From Dictyostelium discoideum (Eukaryota), in assembly GCA_000004695.1 (NCBI GenBank), contig CM000151.3, positions 3,840,001-3,904,000 of the forward strand: a stretch of 64,000 bases of DNA. Direction: 5' to 3'. The notes below the pieces were generated by a model. That model saw only the letters and a program-made list of their open reading frames with translations. It was not told the origin of the DNA and ran no database searches. Positions 2 to 54,924 of the stretch are shown here, piece after piece. Position numbers and translations under genes: made by a program. Each line of letters begins with the position of its first letter. Within the stretch, counting starts at the first letter, position 1.

Positions 2-916
2 GGTAGTCTAAAATATTCATTACGTAGTGTTAGAAAGTACGCCCCTTGGATAAAGAATATTTTTATTGTAACTGCAAATCAAATTCCATCATGGTTTAAT
101 ACTTCAAATCATCAAAATGTTTATTTTATATTTCATAATCAATTTTTTAAAAATATGTAAGTAATTAAATTTAATTTATATATATATATATATATTTTAT
201 CCATAATATATATTAAAATTATTTAATTTTGAATATATAAAAAAAGAGATGATTTGCCAACATTTAATTCAAATTCAATTGAATCAAATTTTTGGAATTT
301 ACCAGAAGAAGTTTCAAATTGTTTTTTATATTTAAATGATGATTTATTTTTTAGAGAACCAGTAAAAGTTAGTGATTTCTTTGATTCTGAATTTAATCAA
401 CATATATTTGAAAGTGATGAAATTATATCAAGTTATACAGATATTGAAAATAATGAAAGATTGGATGTTTGGGCTAAATCATTGGTTATGTCAAATAAAG
501 TATTGGATAGAATTTGGAAAACTCTTGGAAAACCTAGACAAAATGCTCAACATGGTGTTCAAGTGTTTAATAGAAAGATTTGGATCTTAATGAAAAGAGA
601 ATTGGAGAAAGAACTATCAATGACATCTTCAAATAAGTTTAGAACTGTAAATGATATTCAAATACCATTCACCTATAATCAGTTTGCAAAGAGATACTCT
701 CAACATATCATTAAAGAACCAAATAATGGCTACTATGGTTTAAATGATAAAAATTTAAACAAAACTTTTCAAGAAGTTTTACTCAATAAAAATAAATCAA
801 AAACAATTTGTTTAAATGATTTATTGGGTGAAAGTTTAGATAAAAATACAAGTCTTCAAATTTTTAACTTTTTTGAATCTTTATTTCCAATTAAATCACC
901 TTATGAAAATAATTAA
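2..916 (+). CDS. Stealth-family protein resembling the catalytic region of GlcNAc-1-phosphotransferase (GNPTAB-like); 5' end cut by the window; exons about 2..156 and 247..916
   Basis: Frame 2 of bases 2-156 translates to [52 protein letters not shown]. This closely matches the Stealth CR2 block of human GNPTAB ([46 protein letters not shown]). A GTAAGT donor lies at 157 and an AG acceptor at 245-246, giving a 90-nt A/T intron that keeps frame. Exon 2 continues [15 protein letters not shown]...[10 protein letters not shown] (human: LPTFSSPAIESH...FIYLNDDVMF). Stop at 914-916. Confidence 0.7.
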
Positions 917-26270: not shown

Positions 26271-26511
26271 AAAAGAAAAAAAAAATTAATTATTAAAAAA
26301 TAAATATTTTAATAGAAAATATTTTTTTTCAAGTTTGGAAAATCAATCAAATAAATTAAATCCTTTGAATTCCAAAATAAAAATGAAAATTAAAAATAAA
26401 AAAAAAATTTTCTTTTTTTTTTTTTTTTTTCAATTTTTTTTTTTTTTTTTTTTTCACAAATCATTGTCGAATTTTCATTTTTAATTGTTGTGATAAATTT
26501 ATATTTAAATA

Positions 26512-28750
26512 ATGTCAAACAATTTATTTGGTACAGGTTCATCAACTTCATCATCATTATTTGGTTCAACACCTTCAGCAGGTGGATTATTTGGTGGTGG
26601 TAGTTCAACAACACCAGCAACAGGCGGTGGTGGTTTATTTGGAGGTGCCTCAACAACACCAGCAACAGGCGGCGGTTTATTTGGAGGTGCCTCAACAACA
26701 CCAGCAACAGGTGGTGGTTTATTTGGAGGTGCCTCAACAACACCAGCAACAGGTGGTGGTGGTTTATTTGGAGGTAGTAGCACTACAGCACCAGCAACAG
26801 GTGGTGGTGGTTTATTTGGTGGTTCTACAACAACTGCACCAGCAACTACTGGAGGATTATTTGGAGGTAGTAGCACTACAGCACCATCAACAACAACTGG
26901 TGGATTATTCGGAGGTTCTTCAACAACTACACCATCAATAACAACAACAGGAGGATTATTTGGAGGTGCTTCAACAACTGCACCATCAACAACAACAGGT
27001 GGATTATTTGGAGCAACTACACCAGCAACTACAGCAACAACAACAACAGGTGGATTATTTGGCGGATCTACAACCACACCATCATTAACAAGTGGTGGAG
27101 GTTTATTTGGAGCAACTACACCAGCAGCTACAACAACAACAACATCCTCAGCTATACCATCATTAACTAGCGGCGGAGGTTTATTTGGTGGATCTACAAC
27201 TACACCATCATTAACTAGTGGTGGATTATTTGGAGCAACTACACCAGCAGCTACAACAACTACATCTACAACTACACCATCATTAACTAGTGGTGGATTA
27301 TTTGGAGCAACCACACCATCAACTACAGGAGGATTATTTGGAGCATCAACAACAACAACAACAACACCATCAACTACATCTACAACAACTCCATCAACAA
27401 CTACAGGCGGATTATTCGGTGCAACTACACCAGCAACAACTACAACTTCAGGAGGATTATTTGGAGCATCAACAACAACACCATCAACCACAGGAGGATT
27501 ATTTGGAGTGTCAACAACAACACCATCAACTACATCAGCAACCACACCAACAACAACAACTACAGGAGGATTATTTGGCGCAGCAACAACATCAGCAACT
27601 ACACCATCAACAACAACAACAACAACAACAACAACACCAACTACTGGATTATTTGGTTCATCAACAACACCATCAACAACAACATCAGGTGGATTGTTTG
27701 GTTCATCAACTACTCCATCAACAACAACAACAACAACAACAGCAACAACACCAACAACAGGCGGATTATTTGGTTCATCAACTACTCCATCAACAACAAC
27801 AACATCAGGTGGATTATTTGGTTCATCAGCTACACCATCAACAACATCATCAGGTGGATTATTTGGAGCAACAACTACTTCAGCAACAACCACAACTACT
27901 ACACCAACCACTACCTCTGGTGGATTATTTGGAACATCATCAACTACCACCACCACTACAACACCAGCAGCAGTAGCAGCAACTTCATCAAATCCACTCA
28001 CAACATCAATGTTGGGTGGATCATCAACAACACCAAATCCAGTTTCAGCTTCTTTAAATAATAGTGATCCAATTGGAATTAATGAAAGTAAATTATTAGA
28101 ACAACTCTTAAATGAATGGGTATCAGAAATTGAAAATCAAACTAAAAATTTTTATGATCAAGCAAAAACTATTTTTGTTTGGGATCAACGTATAATGGAT
28201 AATTCTCAAAAAGTAAATTTATAATTATTAATTTACTATTATTATTCATTTATTATCATTTTATATATTAATCTTAATTTTTTTTTTTTTTTTTTTTTTT
28301 GATTATATTATATATATATAGTTAGGTAAATTAATGGATGTAGTAGTTAAATTAAATTCTCAACAAAATGCATTAAATCAATGTATTGATGTAGTTAGAG
28401 ATCAACAAGCATTATTAGAGAGATCATTGAATGCTTTAGATTCAAAGATTAAATCATCACCAAAGGATAATGAAACAACAGCAGATTTAGAGAGAGAAAG
28501 AATCTATTCTTTGGCAACTAAAATAGATGATGATATCATTAAAGTAGAGAATAAATTATTGGGTGTAGTAAATAAAATTAATCAAAATCAAGTTAAAGAT
28601 GATAATCCAAAGGATTTAAATCAAAAAGTTTCTAAAATCTTAAATGATCACTTAAATACTTTACAATGGATTGATAAAAGTACAAATATTCTTCAAGAAT
28701 CTTTAAAAGTAATAGAAAGTACTTCTTTACCTGAAACTTCAAGAAGATAA
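26512..28750 (+). CDS. nup62: Nucleoporin Nup62/Nsp1 homolog (long GLFG/FG repeat domain plus Nsp1_C coiled coil); exons 26512..28212 and 28322..28750
   Basis: About 500 aa of ...TTPATGGGLFGG... repeats are followed by SKLLEQLLNEWVSEIENQTKNFYDQAKTIFVWDQRIMDNSQK (human Nup62: SLINKWSLELEDQERHFLQQATQVNAWDRTLIENGEK). A GTAAAT donor sits at 28213 and the acceptor at 28320-28321 (phase 0, 109-nt intron). The next exon encodes the coiled coil (ORF 28334..28750). Confidence 0.8.
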
Positions 28751-47022: not shown

Positions 47023-48186
<1,164 letters not shown>

Positions 48187-48366: not shown

Positions 48367-48791
48367 TCATATATTATTTTCAAAAATACCATTTGGTTGT
48401 TGTTGTTGTTGTTGTTGATTTTGGTGGTTTTGTTGTTGTTGATGATGATTTGTATTTTCACAGTTAAATTCGTTAAAATCAGAAATAATACCTAATAATC
48501 TACCAGTTTGTAATTGTTTTTGTTCAGCTACACCTAATGCTAAAGCCCAATCTTCAAGTTTTTGTGTATGTTGTTTTAATTCTTCTTTTGAATATTTTGA
48601 TAGTTCGTTGAATTTAATTTTAAAACTATCATCCACTAATGGATCTAAAAACTCCACTAATTGCTTTACTCTATCATCCTAATAATATTAAAATTATTTA
48701 TTATTAATATTAATATTATGAATTTCTTTTTAAAACGATTATTTATTTATTTATTTATTTATTTTTTAATATATACATGTGTGTCTGACAT
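48367..48791 (-). CDS. Hypothetical small protein (about 108 aa) with a 5-codon first exon; exons about 48777..48791 and 48367..48678
   Basis: ORF 48367..48657 has no ATG and its frame stays open upstream to an acceptor tattattag (48679-48680). A 15-nt exon ATGTCAGACACACAT (MSDTH) with a GTATAT donor lies 98 nt upstream in matching phase 0. Product reads MSDTHDDRVKQLVEFLDPLVDDSFKIKFNELSKYSKEELKQHTQKLEDWALALGVAEQKQLQTGRLLGII... No family recognised. Confidence 0.33.
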
Positions 48792-49249: not shown

Positions 49250-49965
49250 TTAAAATTGACCAGTTTTAATTTTTGGAGACATTGGTTTTTCATTCAACCA
49301 ATCACTTCTTTTTTCAAATTTGGTAGTTTTTCCATCACTATCTTTTTTGATCATAATTTCTTCTTTTTTGATTAATTTTGGAGAGTTGAGACCAGTTGTT
49401 TGAGTCATTTGAGTAGTGGTTTGAGTGAATTCAGAAGCCATTTTAGCACCCTTTGAAATGGATAGGATTGGTGCTGGCATTGGTTTAACATTGAGTACAC
49501 AACTATCGGATTTTTGTAAGATAATTTCAGGAGTACCTTTGAATTCAGAGATTCTAACGATTGGTTCACTTCTAAAGAGTTTAATTAATGGTTCTTGTTG
49601 AGAGACATTAATATTTGGTGGAGTTGCAGCTGCGAATGAAACCATTGGTTTTGAGGATTGAATTTGAACTTCTGGTTTTTGTTGATTAATGATAACTGAT
49701 GCTTTTGGTTGGTTTACACTAACCATTGGTTCTCTTTGAATAAATTCAACTCTTGGTGCCATTTGATTCACATCAATGATTGGTGCATGTTGATCCAAAA
49801 AGATTCTTGGTGCTGGTTGTTGAATTTCAACTTGTGCTGCTGGTACTGTAACTTCAGCTCTTAATGATTTTTCAACAACATCCAAATCTGTTGCATTCTC
49901 TTTAATGATAATTTCTGGTGGAACTTCATAGACATTAATATTGTCCTTACCTTATTTTTTAAAAA

Positions 49966-49997
<32 letters not shown>

Positions 49998-50260
49998 AAA
50001 AATATTTTAGTTTAAAATTATTTTTAAATAAAAAATATTTAAATATTAAATTATAATAATTATTTACCTTCATCAACTTTAATTTGAGTTTGTTGTTTTT
50101 CAACTAATACTCTTTGTCTTGGTTGTTCTAATTTAATGACACCATCATCATAATTGTTAACCCAAGTTTGTTGTTTAACAATTTTAGTTGTGGTTTTTTC
50201 ATTATCAGAGAAACGTGGAGTACCTTTTTGGCAAGTGGTTTTAATTTGATTTAAATCCAT
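49250..50260 (-). CDS. Periodic P-x-[IV]-x-[IV] repeat protein A (about 275 aa); exons about 50068..50260 and 49250..49950
   Basis: ORF 50060..50260 ends ...KVDEG with a GTAAAT donor in phase 1. The acceptor aaaaaataag (49951-49952) opens the frame of ORF 49250..49885. The product is built of roughly 11-residue units such as QPAPRIFLDQ / HAPIIDVNQ / MAPRVEFIQ / REPMVSVNQ / QKPEVQIQS / QEPLIKLFR / SEPIVRISE. It is a paralog of the divergently transcribed gene at 51057. Confidence 0.55.
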
Positions 50261-50264
50261 TGTT

Positions 50265-50295
<31 letters not shown>

Positions 50296-51025
50296 AGAAA
50301 TTTATTGTAAATAATTGTTTATTTTTATTATTTATTAGATTGTTATTTGAGTGAATGAATTAAAATTTTTTTTTTTTTTTGTTTAAAAAGAAAATCAAAA
50401 ACATAGTAAAATTTAACTTTGAAAAAAAATGTGTTTTTTTTTTTTTAGATCTCTAATAACCACCATATTAATTATAGATTGATATTTTATTTTGGATTTT
50501 TTTTTTTTTTTAATTAAAATTAAAATTTAATTTCCTATTTTAGATATTAGAAAAAATTAAAAAAAATAAAAAAATAAAAATAAAATTAAATTTTTTTTTT
50601 TTTTTTTTTTTTTACTAAAATAGATTTTTACTTTTATTTTATTTTTTTTATTTTTTTATTTTTTTTTACTAAAATATTTTTAATTGGGACAATAGATATT
50701 TTATTATGTTTTTTTTTTTTTCTTTTATTTTTGTTTTTTTATTATTAATAAAAAAAAAAAAAAAATAAATAAAAATAAAAAAAAATTTAAAAATAAATAA
50801 ATTAAATTAAAATGATAATATCGATCTTTTATCAAAACATTTAAGAGATTTAAGTAAAAAAAAAAAAAAAAAAAAAAAGGTTTGTTTTTATAGTTTATAA
50901 AAAAATTTTTTTTTTTTATTTTTCCAAGTTTCATTTTAATAAATATTTTCTAAATAAATATATAAATATAAATATATAAATTTTTTAAATAAAAAAAATA
51001 TAATTCATAGTAATTTTTAATCTAT

Positions 51026-51056
<31 letters not shown>

Positions 51057-51057
<1 letters not shown>

Positions 51058-52813
51058 TGGTTGAAAAAGTTTATTCAAGTTCACCAAAGCAACAAGCTGA
51101 TGAAAGAGTTTATTCAACAACAGGAAATGCTGGAACCTATAGGGATAGCTACGATATTTCAGTTAAACAACAACCAGCTCATTTAACATTTGATCAAACA
51201 CCAATGTATTTAGAATTGAATGAAATCGCTAAACATATTTCAGTGGAGAGAGCTCAACCAACCGTTAACATTGGTCGTGCCGCCGATTTAATTCAAGTTA
51301 AACAAGAACCAGTTCAAGTCCAAGTTCAACAAAATGCAACCGATGTAAATGTTACCACTGAACAACAAGTTATCGAAGTTCAACAAGTTGCTCCAGAAGT
51401 TGAAATTGAACAATATATGCCAAAATTCTATCTTAAAATGCCACCATTCCGTGTTCATTTGGAAATGGACGGTGCTCCTGAAATCATTATGGAACCATAT
51501 CAACCTTCCATTAAAGTTAAACAATCTGATCCAATCGTTCGTGTAACTAAACCTGATCCAAGAGTTTTAGTTACTGAAAATCCACCAAAAATTGATATCA
51601 TTCAAAATGCTTCTTCTGTTGATGTTATTCCTTCAACTAAAGCTTCTGTAAGTTTTAATTATTTTAAAAAATCTTATATATATATATTAATAATTATACT
51701 AACTTTTTTTTTTTTTTTTTTTTTTTTTAAAATTAATAGATCCAAGTTAAAGAAGATAAACCAAAGATTACTATTCAAGAATATAATCCAACAATGACAT
51801 TTAGAGAAGGTGAAACTAAATTTGATTATAAATCATTCCAACCAGAAGTTCAATGGGAGAATCCAACACCAAAGGTTACAGTTTCACAAGGTGAACCAAC
51901 AATTAGAGTTTCACAAGATACACCATCAATCGGACTTAAGAATAGAGAACCATCAGTTACTATCAATACTAAAGCACCAAAGATCGATGTTCATCATCAT
52001 CCATTATCAGTATCTGTCGTTGAGCCAGCTACAACTGTTCATTTCGGTAATCCAAATAGCTATGCTGCCGCTGCCGCTCATCAACCACATGAACATAATT
52101 GGGAAGAAATTAAAGCAATTAAAGTTGACCAACCATTAGAGAAAATCGGTCATTTCTATTCCCCATCTGAAAAGACCCTAACTTCATTCAATTTATGGAA
52201 AAACATATTAACCTCAACTGAAAAAGTTATTGCAAACAAAGGTGTTGGTAGAAATTTCTTTACCCTTATCGACACTCATGAAAATAAAATCTGTGAATGT
52301 TTCAAAGAGGATTTAGGTCTCCACAGATTCAATCTCAACATTCGTTCTTCAACTGGTGACCTTTTATTCAAAGGTGAATCTCAAGGTCGTACACTTAAAC
52401 TCTTTGATACTCAAGGTACTTTATTCTGTACCGTTGAATGTAGTAAAGATCAAGTAGAATGTTTCAATGATAAAGGTCAATTATGTTTCAATTTATTACC
52501 AAATTCTATGAAATGGTTCTTTGATATTAGAAACAAAGGTTAGTAGTATTATATTAAATTTTAATTTATAATAATAATGTTTTATATATAATTCTCTCTC
52601 TAATACATTATTCTTTTTTTTTTTCTTTTTCTTTTTTTTTAATTGTAATAAAAACTAATACTACCAATTTAGCTCAATCAACAATTGGAGCACTTAACAA
52701 GAATGGAAGTAAAACTGGAGGATATATGATGGATTTCCCAAGAGATTTAATTCCAAATGATAAGATGTTATTAATTTCATCTATGTTCTTAATTGATGAT
52801 TGTTTCGAATAGA
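51057..52813 (+). CDS. Periodic P-x-[IV]-x-[IV] repeat protein B with a C-terminal tubby-like/LURP-one-related-type beta-barrel region; exons about 51057..51647, 51740..52538, ~52674..52813
   Basis: A GTAAGT donor follows ...IPSTKAS at 51648 and the acceptor is aattaatag (51738-51739, phase 0). The frame runs into ORF 51794..52543. A GTTAGT donor after ...IRNKG and the acceptor accaatttag add AQSTIGALNKNGSKTGGYMMDFPRDLIPNDKMLLISSMFLIDDCFE. The repeat units match gene A: EPVQVQVQQ / APEVEIEQ / QPSIKVKQ / DPIVRVTK / DPRVLVTE / PPKIDIIQ / PTPKVTVSQ / EPTIRVSQ / EPSVTINTK / APKIDVHHH. The C-terminal about 200 aa (GHFYSP...FNLWKNIL...FTLIDTHENKICECFKEDLGLHRFNLNIRSSTGDLLFKGESQG...) resembles the LOR/DUF567 fold. 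That assignment is tentative. Confidence 0.55.
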
Positions 52814-52977: not shown

Positions 52978-54924
52978 TTATATATTTTCAGTTATGTTTT
53001 GTTGAATTTGTTGATCAATTGGTTCCTGTTGAACAAGATCTTGATCTTTTGGAGGTTGGTCTAAGTTTGATTCTTGCTCTATTGCTAGTTCTTGTGATTG
53101 TTGTTCAATTGCCATTGAATCTTGTTGTTGAGTTGGTTGTTGTGGTTGTTCAATTGACATTAATTCTTGTTCTTGTTGTTGTTGTTGTTGTTCTTGTTGT
53201 TGTTGTTGTTGTTGTTGTTCTTGTTGTTGTGGTTGTTGTTGTGGTTGTGGTTGTGATTGTGATGGAACAATAGAATGAGTTTGTGGTAAAGAAGGAATAG
53301 TGGATAATTGTTGTTGAGTTGGTTTAATTAATTTTTTAACAATTTCTTGATAATATACCCTACCTTGTTTTGAAGTATAATTTGTAGAAACTTTTTGAAC
53401 AACATTTTGAACATAAGACTTTGAAAGGAATAAACCTAAATTATGAATGATAGTCTCAACATCTTCTTCTCTAAGGTAGTTTACTCTATTCAAATCAAAG
53501 AAATGGAAAGACTCTAAAACCTTTGCTGATTCATCGACTTGTGTGCCAATGGTGGTTGATGTTGAAGAAGAAGCATTACTAGTTACAGAAGATCTTTGAT
53601 TCTCTGCTGAATTTCTGTTACTATCATCTTTATTAGATAGATTTGGAGAATTAATTGATGATGATGATGTATTACTAGTATTAGTATTATTACTACTATT
53701 ATCATTATTGTTATAATTATTACTCTCAATATTATATTCATTATTATTATCATTTTGATTATTATTTTCATTTTGATTATTATTATTATTATCATTATTA
53801 TTTATTTCATTATTATTATTATTATTATTATTAATATTATTAGTATTATTATTTAATCCCTCATTTAACTCACCTTCAATTTGAACTGGCTCATTGTTAG
53901 TGTTAGTTAGTGTATTGTCCCCTATAATCTCACCATTTTCAGTATTATCAGTGGAAGATTCTCCATCCAATTTAACCTTTTTATCAGTAACTCCACAAAC
54001 ATCTTGTTGTGGTGATTTCTCTGTACTCTTTCTATTTCCATCCAAAGAAGAACTATCAGTTGGTTGATTAGTACCATTGTTGTTATTATTATTATTATTA
54101 TTATTATTAGTATTAGTATTATTTGAAGTATTGATTTCACTATTTTCACCCCTAAAAGCATGATTATCATCTCTCTTTCTCTTTAAGGTTGTATCAGTAA
54201 TTTCATCAGATTCTTGGCTTGTTGGTCTATAATTTACAATTGAAGTTAAAATATTTGTACCCATATCTCTACAAAGCATTAAATAGAATAACTCTGAAAA
54301 TAAAGATGCTTCAAATGTACCCTCATGTGTATCGGATTCATCATAATCTAATAAACCATCAAGAGATAACATCATTGCCTTATATCTATTACCTTCTGAT
54401 GATGGTGTTATGACATTATAAAACTTTGAAGCCTTTGGTAAATGTAATGATCCATGAGTTGTTGTTGCTGTTGCTGCTGTTGTTGTTGGTACTGCTGCTG
54501 CTGGTTTAGTTGTATTTGAAGTTGTTGATGATTTTGGTGGTTGATTTTGTTCAGTATTACTAGAAGTTTCATCATTATCAAAATCTTTTGAAACATGATC
54601 TTTTGGAGCTTGATCTTCCTCCTCTTCTTCTTCAGTAGTTTTAGTAGTAGCGGTAGTAACTCCAACAGGAGCTGATGGTGTTGTTTCAGAAACTGTTGGA
54701 ACTTTTAATAAGGAATCAACATCCATTGGTTGAATATCAGTGATATCTGGTACATATATAACGGTAATCTCTTGGTAATATGATTGTTCTTCAGTTGGTG
54801 GTCTATAATAATGAACTTCCATAAATTTATACCATTTTTTGCATCCACTTAAATCAATTTGAGTATATTCTTTAGTTGTACGACTATATTTTTATTAATA
54901 AAATTAAATAATATTAGTAAATTT

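Follow-up and report, generated by a model that had tools for sequence, protein, structure and literature searches.

A head-to-head pair of spore-specific dictyostelid genes encoding nine-residue repeat proteins, one of which ends in a tubby-like barrel

The stretch of DNA analysed here (the window; 64,000 nucleotides) comes from chromosome 2 of Dictyostelium discoideum AX4, and contains the divergent genes A and B (Table 1). Spliced models reproduce the annotated proteins exactly, A being DDB_G0274335 (XP_643921.1; Q86IY2) and B being 100% identical to DDB_G0274337 (XP_643922.1; Q86IY3). The models confirm a head-to-head layout with starts 796 bp apart, as described in a first-pass annotation of the window, and they correct two details of it: the stop codon of gene B ends at 52812 rather than at 52813, and the string FFDIRNKG attributed to B arises from reading past the donor site of exon 2, and splicing gives FFDIRNKAQST instead. 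No signal peptide or transmembrane segment was found in the sequence of either protein, and both are therefore read as probably cytosolic. Ten large ORFs were considered around the pair, nine upstream of A and one just downstream of B, and the spoC BAR-domain gene is not among them.

Table 1. Features of the A/B locus (positions within the window)
Feature	Position	Strand	Remarks
Gene A (DDB_G0274335), 297 aa	49250..50260	minus	spliced model = XP_643921.1
Gene A, exon 1	50260-50068	minus	
Gene A, intron	50067-49951	minus	
Gene A, exon 2	49950-49250	minus	includes stop
A nonapeptide-repeat region, residues ~39-232	49448..50146	minus	~20 units in a 9-residue register; crosses intron
Intergenic region, 796 bp	50261..51056		9% GC, between divergent ATGs; presumed bidirectional spore-specific promoter
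Gene B (DDB_G0274337), 509 aa	51057..52812	plus	spliced model = XP_643922.1
Gene B, exons	51057-51647, 51740-52538, 52673-52812	plus	last includes stop
B nonapeptide-repeat region, residues 31-300	51147..52048	plus	~30 units in a 9-residue register; crosses intron 1
B tubby-like C-terminal domain, residues ~341-509	52169..52812	plus	crosses intron 2

Both proteins carry arrays of a 9-residue unit, x-P-x-[IVL]-x-[IVL]-x-Q-x, whose periodicity is far beyond chance. Autocorrelation peaks at 9 with harmonics at 18, 27 and 36, and when compared with 2000 shuffles the signal reaches z = 10.9 in B and 5.3 in A for aliphatic residues, and 6.2 and 5.0, respectively, for proline. Every example unit quoted in the first-pass annotation is present in the two sequences, but the period of ~11 residues given there is mistaken; lag 11 is a weak side-peak (z 4.2) that appears for the aliphatics in B only. 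At the DNA level, a single tandem signal, of 27 bp in 2 copies, is present within B, at 51876-51930.

The paralogy of A and B was at first thought to be directly visible. The conclusion stands, but it cannot be read from raw scores, because in BLASTP the score of A with bacterial repeat proteins (75 bits) exceeds its score with B (48 bits). Raw BLAST was consequently dropped as proof in favor of permutation tests. The Smith-Waterman score of A against B is 179, compared with 117 +/- 15 when the units of B are permuted (a value of 179 was reached by 1 of 500 permutations) and 88 +/- 12 for shuffles that preserve phase (0 of 500). Permuting the order of units in B thus removes most of the similarity, and hhalign aligns the two proteins collinearly with a probability of 95.7% (E 8.5e-9). 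Since the similarity is collinear and holds unit by unit, A and B are true paralogues.

The head-to-head layout is kept in four species (D. discoideum, D. purpureum, Tieghemostelium lacteum and Cavenderia fasciculata), and because the pair is present in this form in dictyostelid groups 1, 3 and 4, it is ancient and predates the dictyostelid radiation; among the best 150 of 361 profile matches, it is confined to dictyostelids. A local inverted duplication, as first suggested, is a plausible origin, but it would be older than the radiation and has left no trace in the DNA: no inverted repeat links A and B, the only matches being A/T low-complexity sequence, which rules out a recent event. Within both proteins, the repeat region is the part most strongly conserved. 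The repeats of B are 81% identical to those of D. purpureum and 50% identical to those of Synstelium (barrel, 76% and 42%), with no unit insertions or deletions over 270 residues in either comparison; in the A family, the repeats have 65-70% identity and the tail 42-47%. Across the radiation, the number of units has been fixed and the sequences of individual units have been conserved.

The C-terminal domain of B is a tubby-like beta-barrel of 12 strands that encloses a central helix. It is made up of one helix, 12 beta-strands and the C-terminal helix; as in the Tubby C-terminal-like superfamily (the Tub / LOR / Scramblase clan), the 12-stranded barrel is closed and the C-terminal helix is hydrophobic and passes through its centre. 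The tubby/LURP-one-like look noticed earlier is upheld in structure, the best structural match of the domain being a LOR structure, but not by family profiles, since neither Tub (PF01167) nor LOR / DUF567 (PF04525) is among the Pfam matches returned at E up to 10. Identity to LURP-one-related / DUF567 (At5g01750; PDB 1zxu, 2q4m) and Tubby domains (PDB 1i7e, 2fim) is only 10-13%, and the domain of B differs further from LOR and Tubby proteins in sitting behind a nonapeptide array of ~300 residues. Among the best 150 of 361 profile matches, the combination of nonapeptide array and tubby-like domain is found in dictyostelids only.

The closest family by sequence is Scramblase (PF03803), which is matched by all four B orthologues (best E 5.5e-6). 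The match covers the last ~60 profile positions (~154-218 of 221), which is the C-terminal quarter only, and its scores of 18.6 bits for D. discoideum B and 22.7 bits for Synstelium lie below the gathering threshold of 25.4. Phospholipid scramblases (PF03803) and B share the strand-plus-helix ending ...FP.DL...KMLL.S..FLID..FE. Scramblases are characterized by a cysteine-rich palmitoylation cluster and an EF-hand-like calcium-binding loop. By direct reading, B has neither the cysteine-cluster palmitoylation motif nor the proline-rich N-terminus of PLSCR, and in an unaligned comparison the segment preceding its FPRDL (KTGGYMMD) does not have the acidic D-x-D start of Scramblase.

Expression of A and B is spore-specific; the two genes come on jointly, and very strongly, only in maturing spores at 20-24 h of development. 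In published data, their spore TPM values are 6190 and 2793, respectively, with vegetative values of 0.1 or less and prespore values of ~0, and the ratios of hr24 to hr20 are 253-fold and 95-fold (PMC6198379, supplementary file 5). At the protein level, B heads the list of proteins with a peak at the fruiting-body stage alone (log2FC 12.8), and A is detected at that stage only (PMC12821622). Moreover, RFP under the cloned DDB_G0274335 promoter is expressed only after 22-24 h (PMC8538044). The proposal of co-regulation from the shared intergenic region is borne out by the correlation of the two expression profiles (r = 0.997), by their common spore specificity and by the head-to-head layout in the four species, and 50261-51056 is presumed to be a bidirectional spore-specific promoter. 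The intergenic regions of D. discoideum, D. purpureum and T. lacteum have no 7-10-mer with at least three G/C in common that might represent a conserved promoter motif. A canonical CArG box is present in the T. lacteum region only, and D. discoideum has only the CArG-like CCTATTTTAG.

Beyond the dictyostelids, the repeat has counterparts in Pfam DUF6470 and in the repeat regions carried by hundreds of bacterial PRC-barrel proteins, and the resemblance is largely one of motif. Against DUF6470 (PF20074), A and B score 18 and 26 bits, below the gathering score of 28.9, and the Synstelium B orthologue scores 36.4 bits over five stretches, above it. Precomputed PF20074.5 matches exist in the protein database for P0001-P0003, with the D. 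purpureum gene marked 'faint'. The bacterial consensus in DUF6470 and in alphaproteobacterial-type PRC-barrel and OmpA-domain repeat proteins, E-P-E-V-T-V-E-Q-A, represents the same 9-residue unit as the dictyostelid x-P-x-[IV]-x-[VIL]-x-Q-x. Sampled bacterial repeat proteins begin with signal-peptide-like N-termini and so look like envelope proteins, unlike A and B, which are spore-specific and, as read from their sequences, probably cytosolic. DUF6470 proteins themselves are bacterial, ~170-210 aa long and of YviE type, and a preprint links them to flagellar loci (10.64898/2026.06.11.731707); A and B, in contrast, are eukaryotic, intron-containing and spore-specific. In Sphingomonas, one PRC-barrel gene is listed as EcfG-regulated (general stress response).

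These similarities raise the question of whether the repeat module was acquired from bacteria. In such a scenario, which is compatible with any functional reading, a module of DUF6470/PRC-barrel type would have been transferred horizontally in ancient times and then duplicated, one copy being fused to a tubby-like domain. Bacterial repeat proteins score 75 bits with A and 99 bits with B, compared with 48-55 bits for A with B; DUF6470 is matched by 74 of 106 bacterial matches (PRC-barrel by 91 of 106) as well as by the Synstelium B orthologue; and among the best 150 of 361 profile matches, no eukaryotic homologue beyond low-complexity look-alikes appears outside the dictyostelids. However, shuffling the bacterial repeats with their phase preserved already yields 203 of 249 score units, meaning that the similarity is mostly one of motif composition, and unrelated metazoan 9-residue repeats match the same profile. 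Convergence could also account for the resemblance, and A and B have introns and a native AT-rich composition. On balance, we regard a bacterial transfer as improbable.

What the arrays do in the spore may be considered under several scenarios. We tentatively favor the possibility, which we place a little short of an even chance, that the repeats of A and B form a beta scaffold of fixed length in maturing spores, tethered to membrane through the tubby-like domain of B. Each 9-residue unit would be a short beta-strand of amphipathic character, its P2, V4, V6 and Q8 lying on the same face, and the arrays, by folding or by co-assembly, would give an elongated beta-structure whose length is fixed. 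Candidate geometries are an antiparallel ribbon and a two-sheet solenoid or roll in which every turn takes up 18 residues; linker positions 9 and 1 are atypical of tight beta-turns, so that both geometries are guesses. Present in large amounts, the resulting structure would act as a structural scaffold while the spore dehydrates. By analogy with Tubby and PI(4,5)P2, the tubby-like domain of B might attach it to a membrane lipid surface, and A, having no such domain, would join through its repeats. That A and B assemble with each other is something we infer purely from their co-expression and paralogy.

Structure prediction and structural databases bear on the beta scaffold as follows. AlphaFold2 assigned the repeats of B a pLDDT of 25-34 and no secondary structure, with only 3 sequences in the alignment, and a Foldseek search with the full-length AlphaFold2 model of B returned nothing significant. 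In this low-confidence model, the beta-solenoid suggested in the first-pass annotation is not seen. PDB sequence searches with B, with an A profile and with a bacterial homologue left the repeat unmatched in any solved structure, as did the search with the C-terminal profile; the bacterial homologue matched PDB solely through its PRC-barrel.

The prediction of no secondary structure from that 3-sequence alignment is what would be expected if the repeats were instead disordered, hydrophilic protectant or spacer polymers, comparable to LEA proteins and hydrophilins or to the PEVK spring of titin, and produced in quantity during spore dehydration. Such polymers might shield membranes and proteins or help to vitrify the cytoplasm, and the periodicity would reflect a weak beta or PPII propensity only. 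The massive expression that begins at terminal spore maturation would suit this role, as would a composition with much Q, E, K and P and a negative GRAVY (-0.26 to -0.51); in bacteria, the repeat resembles a linker, with a signal peptide on one side and a PRC-barrel or OmpA domain on the other. Nevertheless, by mean hydropathy the repeats lie beyond the Uversky (charge-hydropathy) boundary, among ordered proteins, and those of A are as hydrophobic as the barrel of B. V and I alternate strictly, which hints that one face is buried, and it is atypical of disordered spacers that the repeats should be the best conserved region, with a fixed unit number and each unit's own sequence kept across dictyostelids. 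We therefore consider a protectant role rather doubtful. LEA proteins and hydrophilins are recognized by 11-mer amphipathic-helix repeats, or by Gly above 6% together with very high hydrophilicity. Membership of A and B in either group is rejected, given their period of 9, their V/I/P-rich repeats, a glycine content outside the top eight residues and their position on the ordered side of the boundary, although they might resemble such proteins in function.

The strong conservation of individual units would also be compatible with specific binding. Short linear motifs that bind partner proteins include the PxIxIT motif of calcineurin and the PxVxL motif of HP1, and units such as PKITIQ, PSVTIN and PEVQIQ, read directly from the sequence, fit the same P-x-hydrophobic-x-hydrophobic pattern. 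The arrays might accordingly be multivalent docking platforms whose P-x-[IV]-x-[IVL] units bind partners by beta-strand addition, concentrating or sequestering a partner in spores. Yet the x-P-x-V-x-V-x-Q-x unit occurs also in hundreds of bacterial envelope proteins without such partners, and 20-30 contiguous motifs without spacers would be sterically odd, making a docking function very unlikely in our view.

A broader form of the beta-scaffold proposal can be imagined, in which the x-P-x-V-x-V-x-Q-x array is an unrecognised beta-structural fold of defined length, common to bacterial envelope proteins (DUF6470 and PRC-barrel/OmpA-attached repeats) and dictyostelid spore proteins through ancient transfer or deep homology. 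A and B would then build a scaffold specific to dormancy, which might be a skeleton beneath the membrane or an assembly that solidifies the cytoplasm; a lipid-binding, tubby-like barrel in B would anchor it, and spore robustness would depend on it. We consider this conjecture distinctly improbable as a whole.

The pair deserves attention for several reasons. In a whole-life-cycle proteome, no protein is more strongly enriched in the fruiting body than B, and the promoter of A is already in use as a fruiting-body reporter, while both proteins are annotated as 'unknown'. The loss of both genes could bring to light a factor in the dormancy or architecture of spores. The motif is shared by hundreds of bacterial DUF6470 and PRC-barrel proteins, and a single solved structure would therefore annotate a large uncharacterised class of repeats. 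Finally, the conserved intergenic region of 0.5-0.9 kb, as a presumed bidirectional and strictly late-spore promoter, would offer a compact model for gene control in terminal differentiation.

Among known repeat systems, the RTX nonapeptide beta-roll shares the 9-residue period of A and B. RTX units contribute one short beta-strand each, and provide a geometric precedent for a two-sheet roll with 18 residues per turn. Unlike RTX proteins, however, A and B do not have the GGxGxDxUx consensus or the calcium-binding Gly/Asp turns, their unit having instead a proline, two aliphatics and a glutamine; membership in the RTX family is ruled out by the motif, and there is no PDB sequence match either. 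An articulin- or alveolin-like scaffold had also been suggested for the pair. The repeats of articulins are VPV units of 12 residues and those of alveolins are of EKIVEVP type, whereas A and B have a period of 9 and a P-x-V-x-V-x-Q motif, returned no Pfam match to either family and belong to a different lineage, and the assignment is rejected. Articulins and alveolins are nonetheless Val/Pro-rich, periodic proteins that have been proposed as membrane skeletons, and in this respect they offer a conceptual analogy to the possible sub-membrane scaffold of A and B.

We consider it established that DDB_G0274335 (A; XP_643921.1, Q86IY2) and DDB_G0274337 (B; XP_643922.1, Q86IY3) are an ancient, co-regulated and spore-specific paralogue pair, that their proteins carry a strongly constrained 9-residue repeat resembling DUF6470 (Pfam PF20074, YviE-type bacterial proteins), and that B bears a tubby-like barrel. 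The locus lies on the 8.48-Mb contig of chromosome 2, and spliced models assembled from the window DNA match the annotated proteins of Dictyostelium discoideum AX4 exactly. As first proposed, the genes are head to head: their divergent start codons are 796 bp apart, across a spacer of 9% GC in a window that is AT-rich throughout (GC ~17-36%) and contains poly-N/Q ORFs. Both proteins lack signal peptides and transmembrane stretches. Upstream of A are vatD and a small LIN52-like gene, and the gene downstream of B, which encodes long poly-N and poly-Q tracts, is convergent with B, the stop codons being only ~165 bp apart. Elsewhere in the window, a nucleoporin ORF is overlapped by a long antisense ORF that looks like a composition artefact.

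Features of the A/B locus, its neighbourhood and its counterparts in other dictyostelids (window positions unless residues or a locus, L001 to L004, are named)
Feature	Location	Strand	Remarks
Gene A	exons 50260-50068, 49950-49250	-	297 aa; spliced model
Gene B	exons 51057-51647, 51740-52538, 52673-52812	+	509 aa; spliced model
A repeat region	residues ~39-232	-	~20 units
A tail	residues 233-297; 49250-49447	-	rich in lysine and threonine
B repeat region	residues 31-300	+	30 units
Spacer direct repeat	50592-50741		~54-72 bp; TRF score 142-167
vatD (DDB_G0274331)	47300-48186	+	V-ATPase subunit D
LIN52-like gene	48367-48657	-	
Gene directly downstream of B	52978-54822	-	DBC1/LAIKA-domain protein, 614 aa
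FG-repeat nucleoporin ORF	26512-28224	+	Nsp1-like C-terminus; Pfam Nucleoporin_FG E 7e-48
ORF antisense to nucleoporin	26505-28001		
D. purpureum A	L001 5149-4181	-	
D. purpureum B	L001 6001-7686	+	
Tieghemostelium lacteum B	L002 5525-3942	-	
Tieghemostelium lacteum A	L002 6070-6792	+	
Cavenderia fasciculata A	L004 6126-5309	-	
Cavenderia fasciculata B	L004 7076-8565	+	
Cavenderia fasciculata DFA_03158 (protein P0009)	L004 7001-10722		annotated 1103 aa

The first-pass annotation gave the repeat a period of ~11 residues, which is wrong; autocorrelation tested against shuffled sequences puts the period strictly at 9 residues, both in B (aliphatic residues z = 10.9, 8.6 and 8.2 at lags 9, 18 and 27; proline z = 6.2) and in A (aliphatic z = 5.3, proline z = 5.0). 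Once the sequence is written in nines the register is obvious, with x-P-x-[IVL]-x-[IVL]-x-Q-x as consensus. In their DNA the units have drifted apart, the sole remaining trace being one 2-copy 27-bp signal. Outside the repeats, the only conserved element of A is a short motif in its tail, KFEKR.(D/E)WL.E, kept in all A orthologues.

The paralogy of A and B, also claimed earlier, stands. The proteins are 26% identical over 205 residues, collinear from their N-termini (BLASTP), and profile-profile comparison aligns them in identical register (95.7% probability, E 8.5e-9), A showing a gap roughly one unit long that faces B segment ~120-139. Raw scores mislead here, A reaching 75 bits with a bacterial repeat protein and only 48 bits with B, and B was therefore permuted. 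The Smith-Waterman score of A against the real B repeats (179) exceeded those obtained after shuffling either the order of the units (117 +/- 15; 179 reached in 1/500) or the residues within repeat phase (88 +/- 12; 0/500), while A against the bacterial protein P0017 scored 249, compared with 203 +/- 13 after a phase-preserving shuffle. Judged by these shuffles, A and B share ancestry unit by unit, and the similarity of A to bacterial repeats is mostly motif composition. The head-to-head pair is found in three further species, of which D. purpureum keeps the gene order of the window (aquarius, vatD, LIN52-like, A, B), and Synstelium polycarpum has a B orthologue; the duplication is therefore older than the radiation of dictyostelid groups. 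No DNA-level inverted repeat linking A and B survives. C. fasciculata DFA_03158 as annotated seems to be two gene models fused: the B orthologue stops at ~8565, and the remainder resembles the FNIP-repeat genes downstream.

Full-length B gave a poor AlphaFold2 model; the isolated C-terminal domain, with a 4-orthologue alignment, reached pLDDT 75.6 and pTM 0.72, with 12 strands and two helices predicted, one of the helices being C-terminal. Foldseek matched this model to 1zxu (E 4.2e-6, TM 0.67) and TULP1 (probability 1.00). The only family signal by sequence was Scramblase, sub-threshold in 4/4 orthologues and confined to the final strand-and-helix segment. The predicted fold, the Foldseek matches and the Scramblase signal support a tubby-like fold at the superfamily level; to that extent the tubby/LURP-one-like C-terminus suggested earlier is retained, without Pfam-defined LOR or Tub membership, and the domain likewise falls outside Pfam Scramblase.

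Expression values were taken from supplementary file 5 of Kin et al. 2018 (PMC6198379), a k-means table whose time-course columns give expression levels from Parikh et al. 2010 and whose cell-type columns give average TPM. Over 0-16 h, and likewise in prespore and prestalk cells, A and B are expressed at near-zero levels; they rise from 7 (A) and 11 (B) at 20 h to 1772 and 1022 at 24 h. For A and B, respectively, TPM is 6190 and 2793 in spores, 110 and 48 in stalk, 7 and 3 in cup, and 0.1 and 0.06 in vegetative cells (PMC6198379). Profiles computed from these values correlate at r = 0.997, in agreement with the suggested co-regulation from the shared spacer. In the life-cycle proteome, B ranks first (log2FC 12.8; intensity ~2e9) of the proteins peaking only in fruiting bodies, and A protein is detected in no stage but the fruiting body (PMC12821622). 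RFP expression from the cloned DDB_G0274335 promoter begins only after 22-24 h, and this promoter serves as a 'fruiting body' reporter (PMC8538044). No cis-motif common to the species was found in the spacer, which contains a direct repeat bearing two copies of TTTACTAAAATA; this is a possible cis-element, without conservation in the other species examined. Two BAR-domain proteins, spoC (DDB_G0274317) and strM (DDB_G0288323), have the same strictly late, spore-specific profile, and strM comes second in the fruiting-body proteome, right after B; there are hints here of a set of membrane-associated spore proteins. A scan of large ORFs in the window did not find spoC.

The main rival explanation for the repeats, which we consider unlikely, is that they are a disordered LEA-like protectant or spacer: AlphaFold2 gives the region pLDDT 25-34 (from an alignment of only 3 sequences), and a PDB search found no relative. 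Evolutionary conservation speaks against this unstructured picture. The B repeats are 81% identical to those of D. purpureum and 50% to those of Synstelium, with no indels over 270 residues, the corresponding values of the folded barrel being 76% and 42%; the A repeats are 65-70% identical and the A tail 42-47%. Individual units retain their own sequences between species, and in charge-hydropathy terms the composition of the repeats places them on the ordered side. If each unit were a beta-strand, P2, V4, V6 and Q8 would lie on one face, a pattern that would fit, geometrically, a two-sheet roll with 18 residues per turn as well as an antiparallel ribbon. As our best mechanistic reading, we tentatively suggest that the repeats build a fixed-length beta scaffold during spore maturation, which the tubby-like domain of B would anchor to membrane lipid and which A would enter through its own repeats. 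Less probable still is a multivalent docking array, which we rate as very improbable.

The B-family profile, run with HMMER against the full set of 1.84 billion representative proteins, gave 361 matches at E <= 1e-3. Among the best 150 of these, three are full-length, all dictyostelid, and the others cover the repeat region only. Among 106 of these repeat-only proteins, the domain counts are 91 for PRC-barrel, 74 for DUF6470 (best E 4.9e-20), 6 for EF-hands and 4 for OmpA, and those inspected have signal-peptide-like N-termini. Several metazoan low-complexity 9-mers such as DPGPTVTLR and EPEIQVINN match the profile too, and the motif can therefore arise by convergence, as far as such sequence matches indicate. 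The metazoan matches P0010, P0011, P0051 and P0056 are unrelated proteins with long 9-residue repeats (DPGPTVTLR, TPAVNATEG, EPGAQVEKE, EPEIQVINN). Proline followed two residues on by valine, with a 9-residue period, seems to be a recurrent, probably convergent repeat design. Against the DUF6470 profile (gathering score 28.9 bits), D. discoideum A (18 bits) and B (26 bits) both fall below the threshold and the Synstelium orthologue of B (36.4 bits) lies above it; DUF6470 has been tied to flagellar loci (preprint 10.64898/2026.06.11.731707). A bacterial origin of the repeat module, which we regard as quite unlikely, is a separate question, compatible with the scaffold, protectant or docking reading alike.

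Finally, we note that A and B themselves were already in the public record, as were their expression values and the tubby label in UniRef. Our literature searches did not turn up the correct definition of the repeat or the connection with bacterial repeats of the DUF6470 and PRC-barrel class, nor did they turn up a tested paralogy of A and B, the depth to which the divergent pair is conserved, or the constraint on the repeats.
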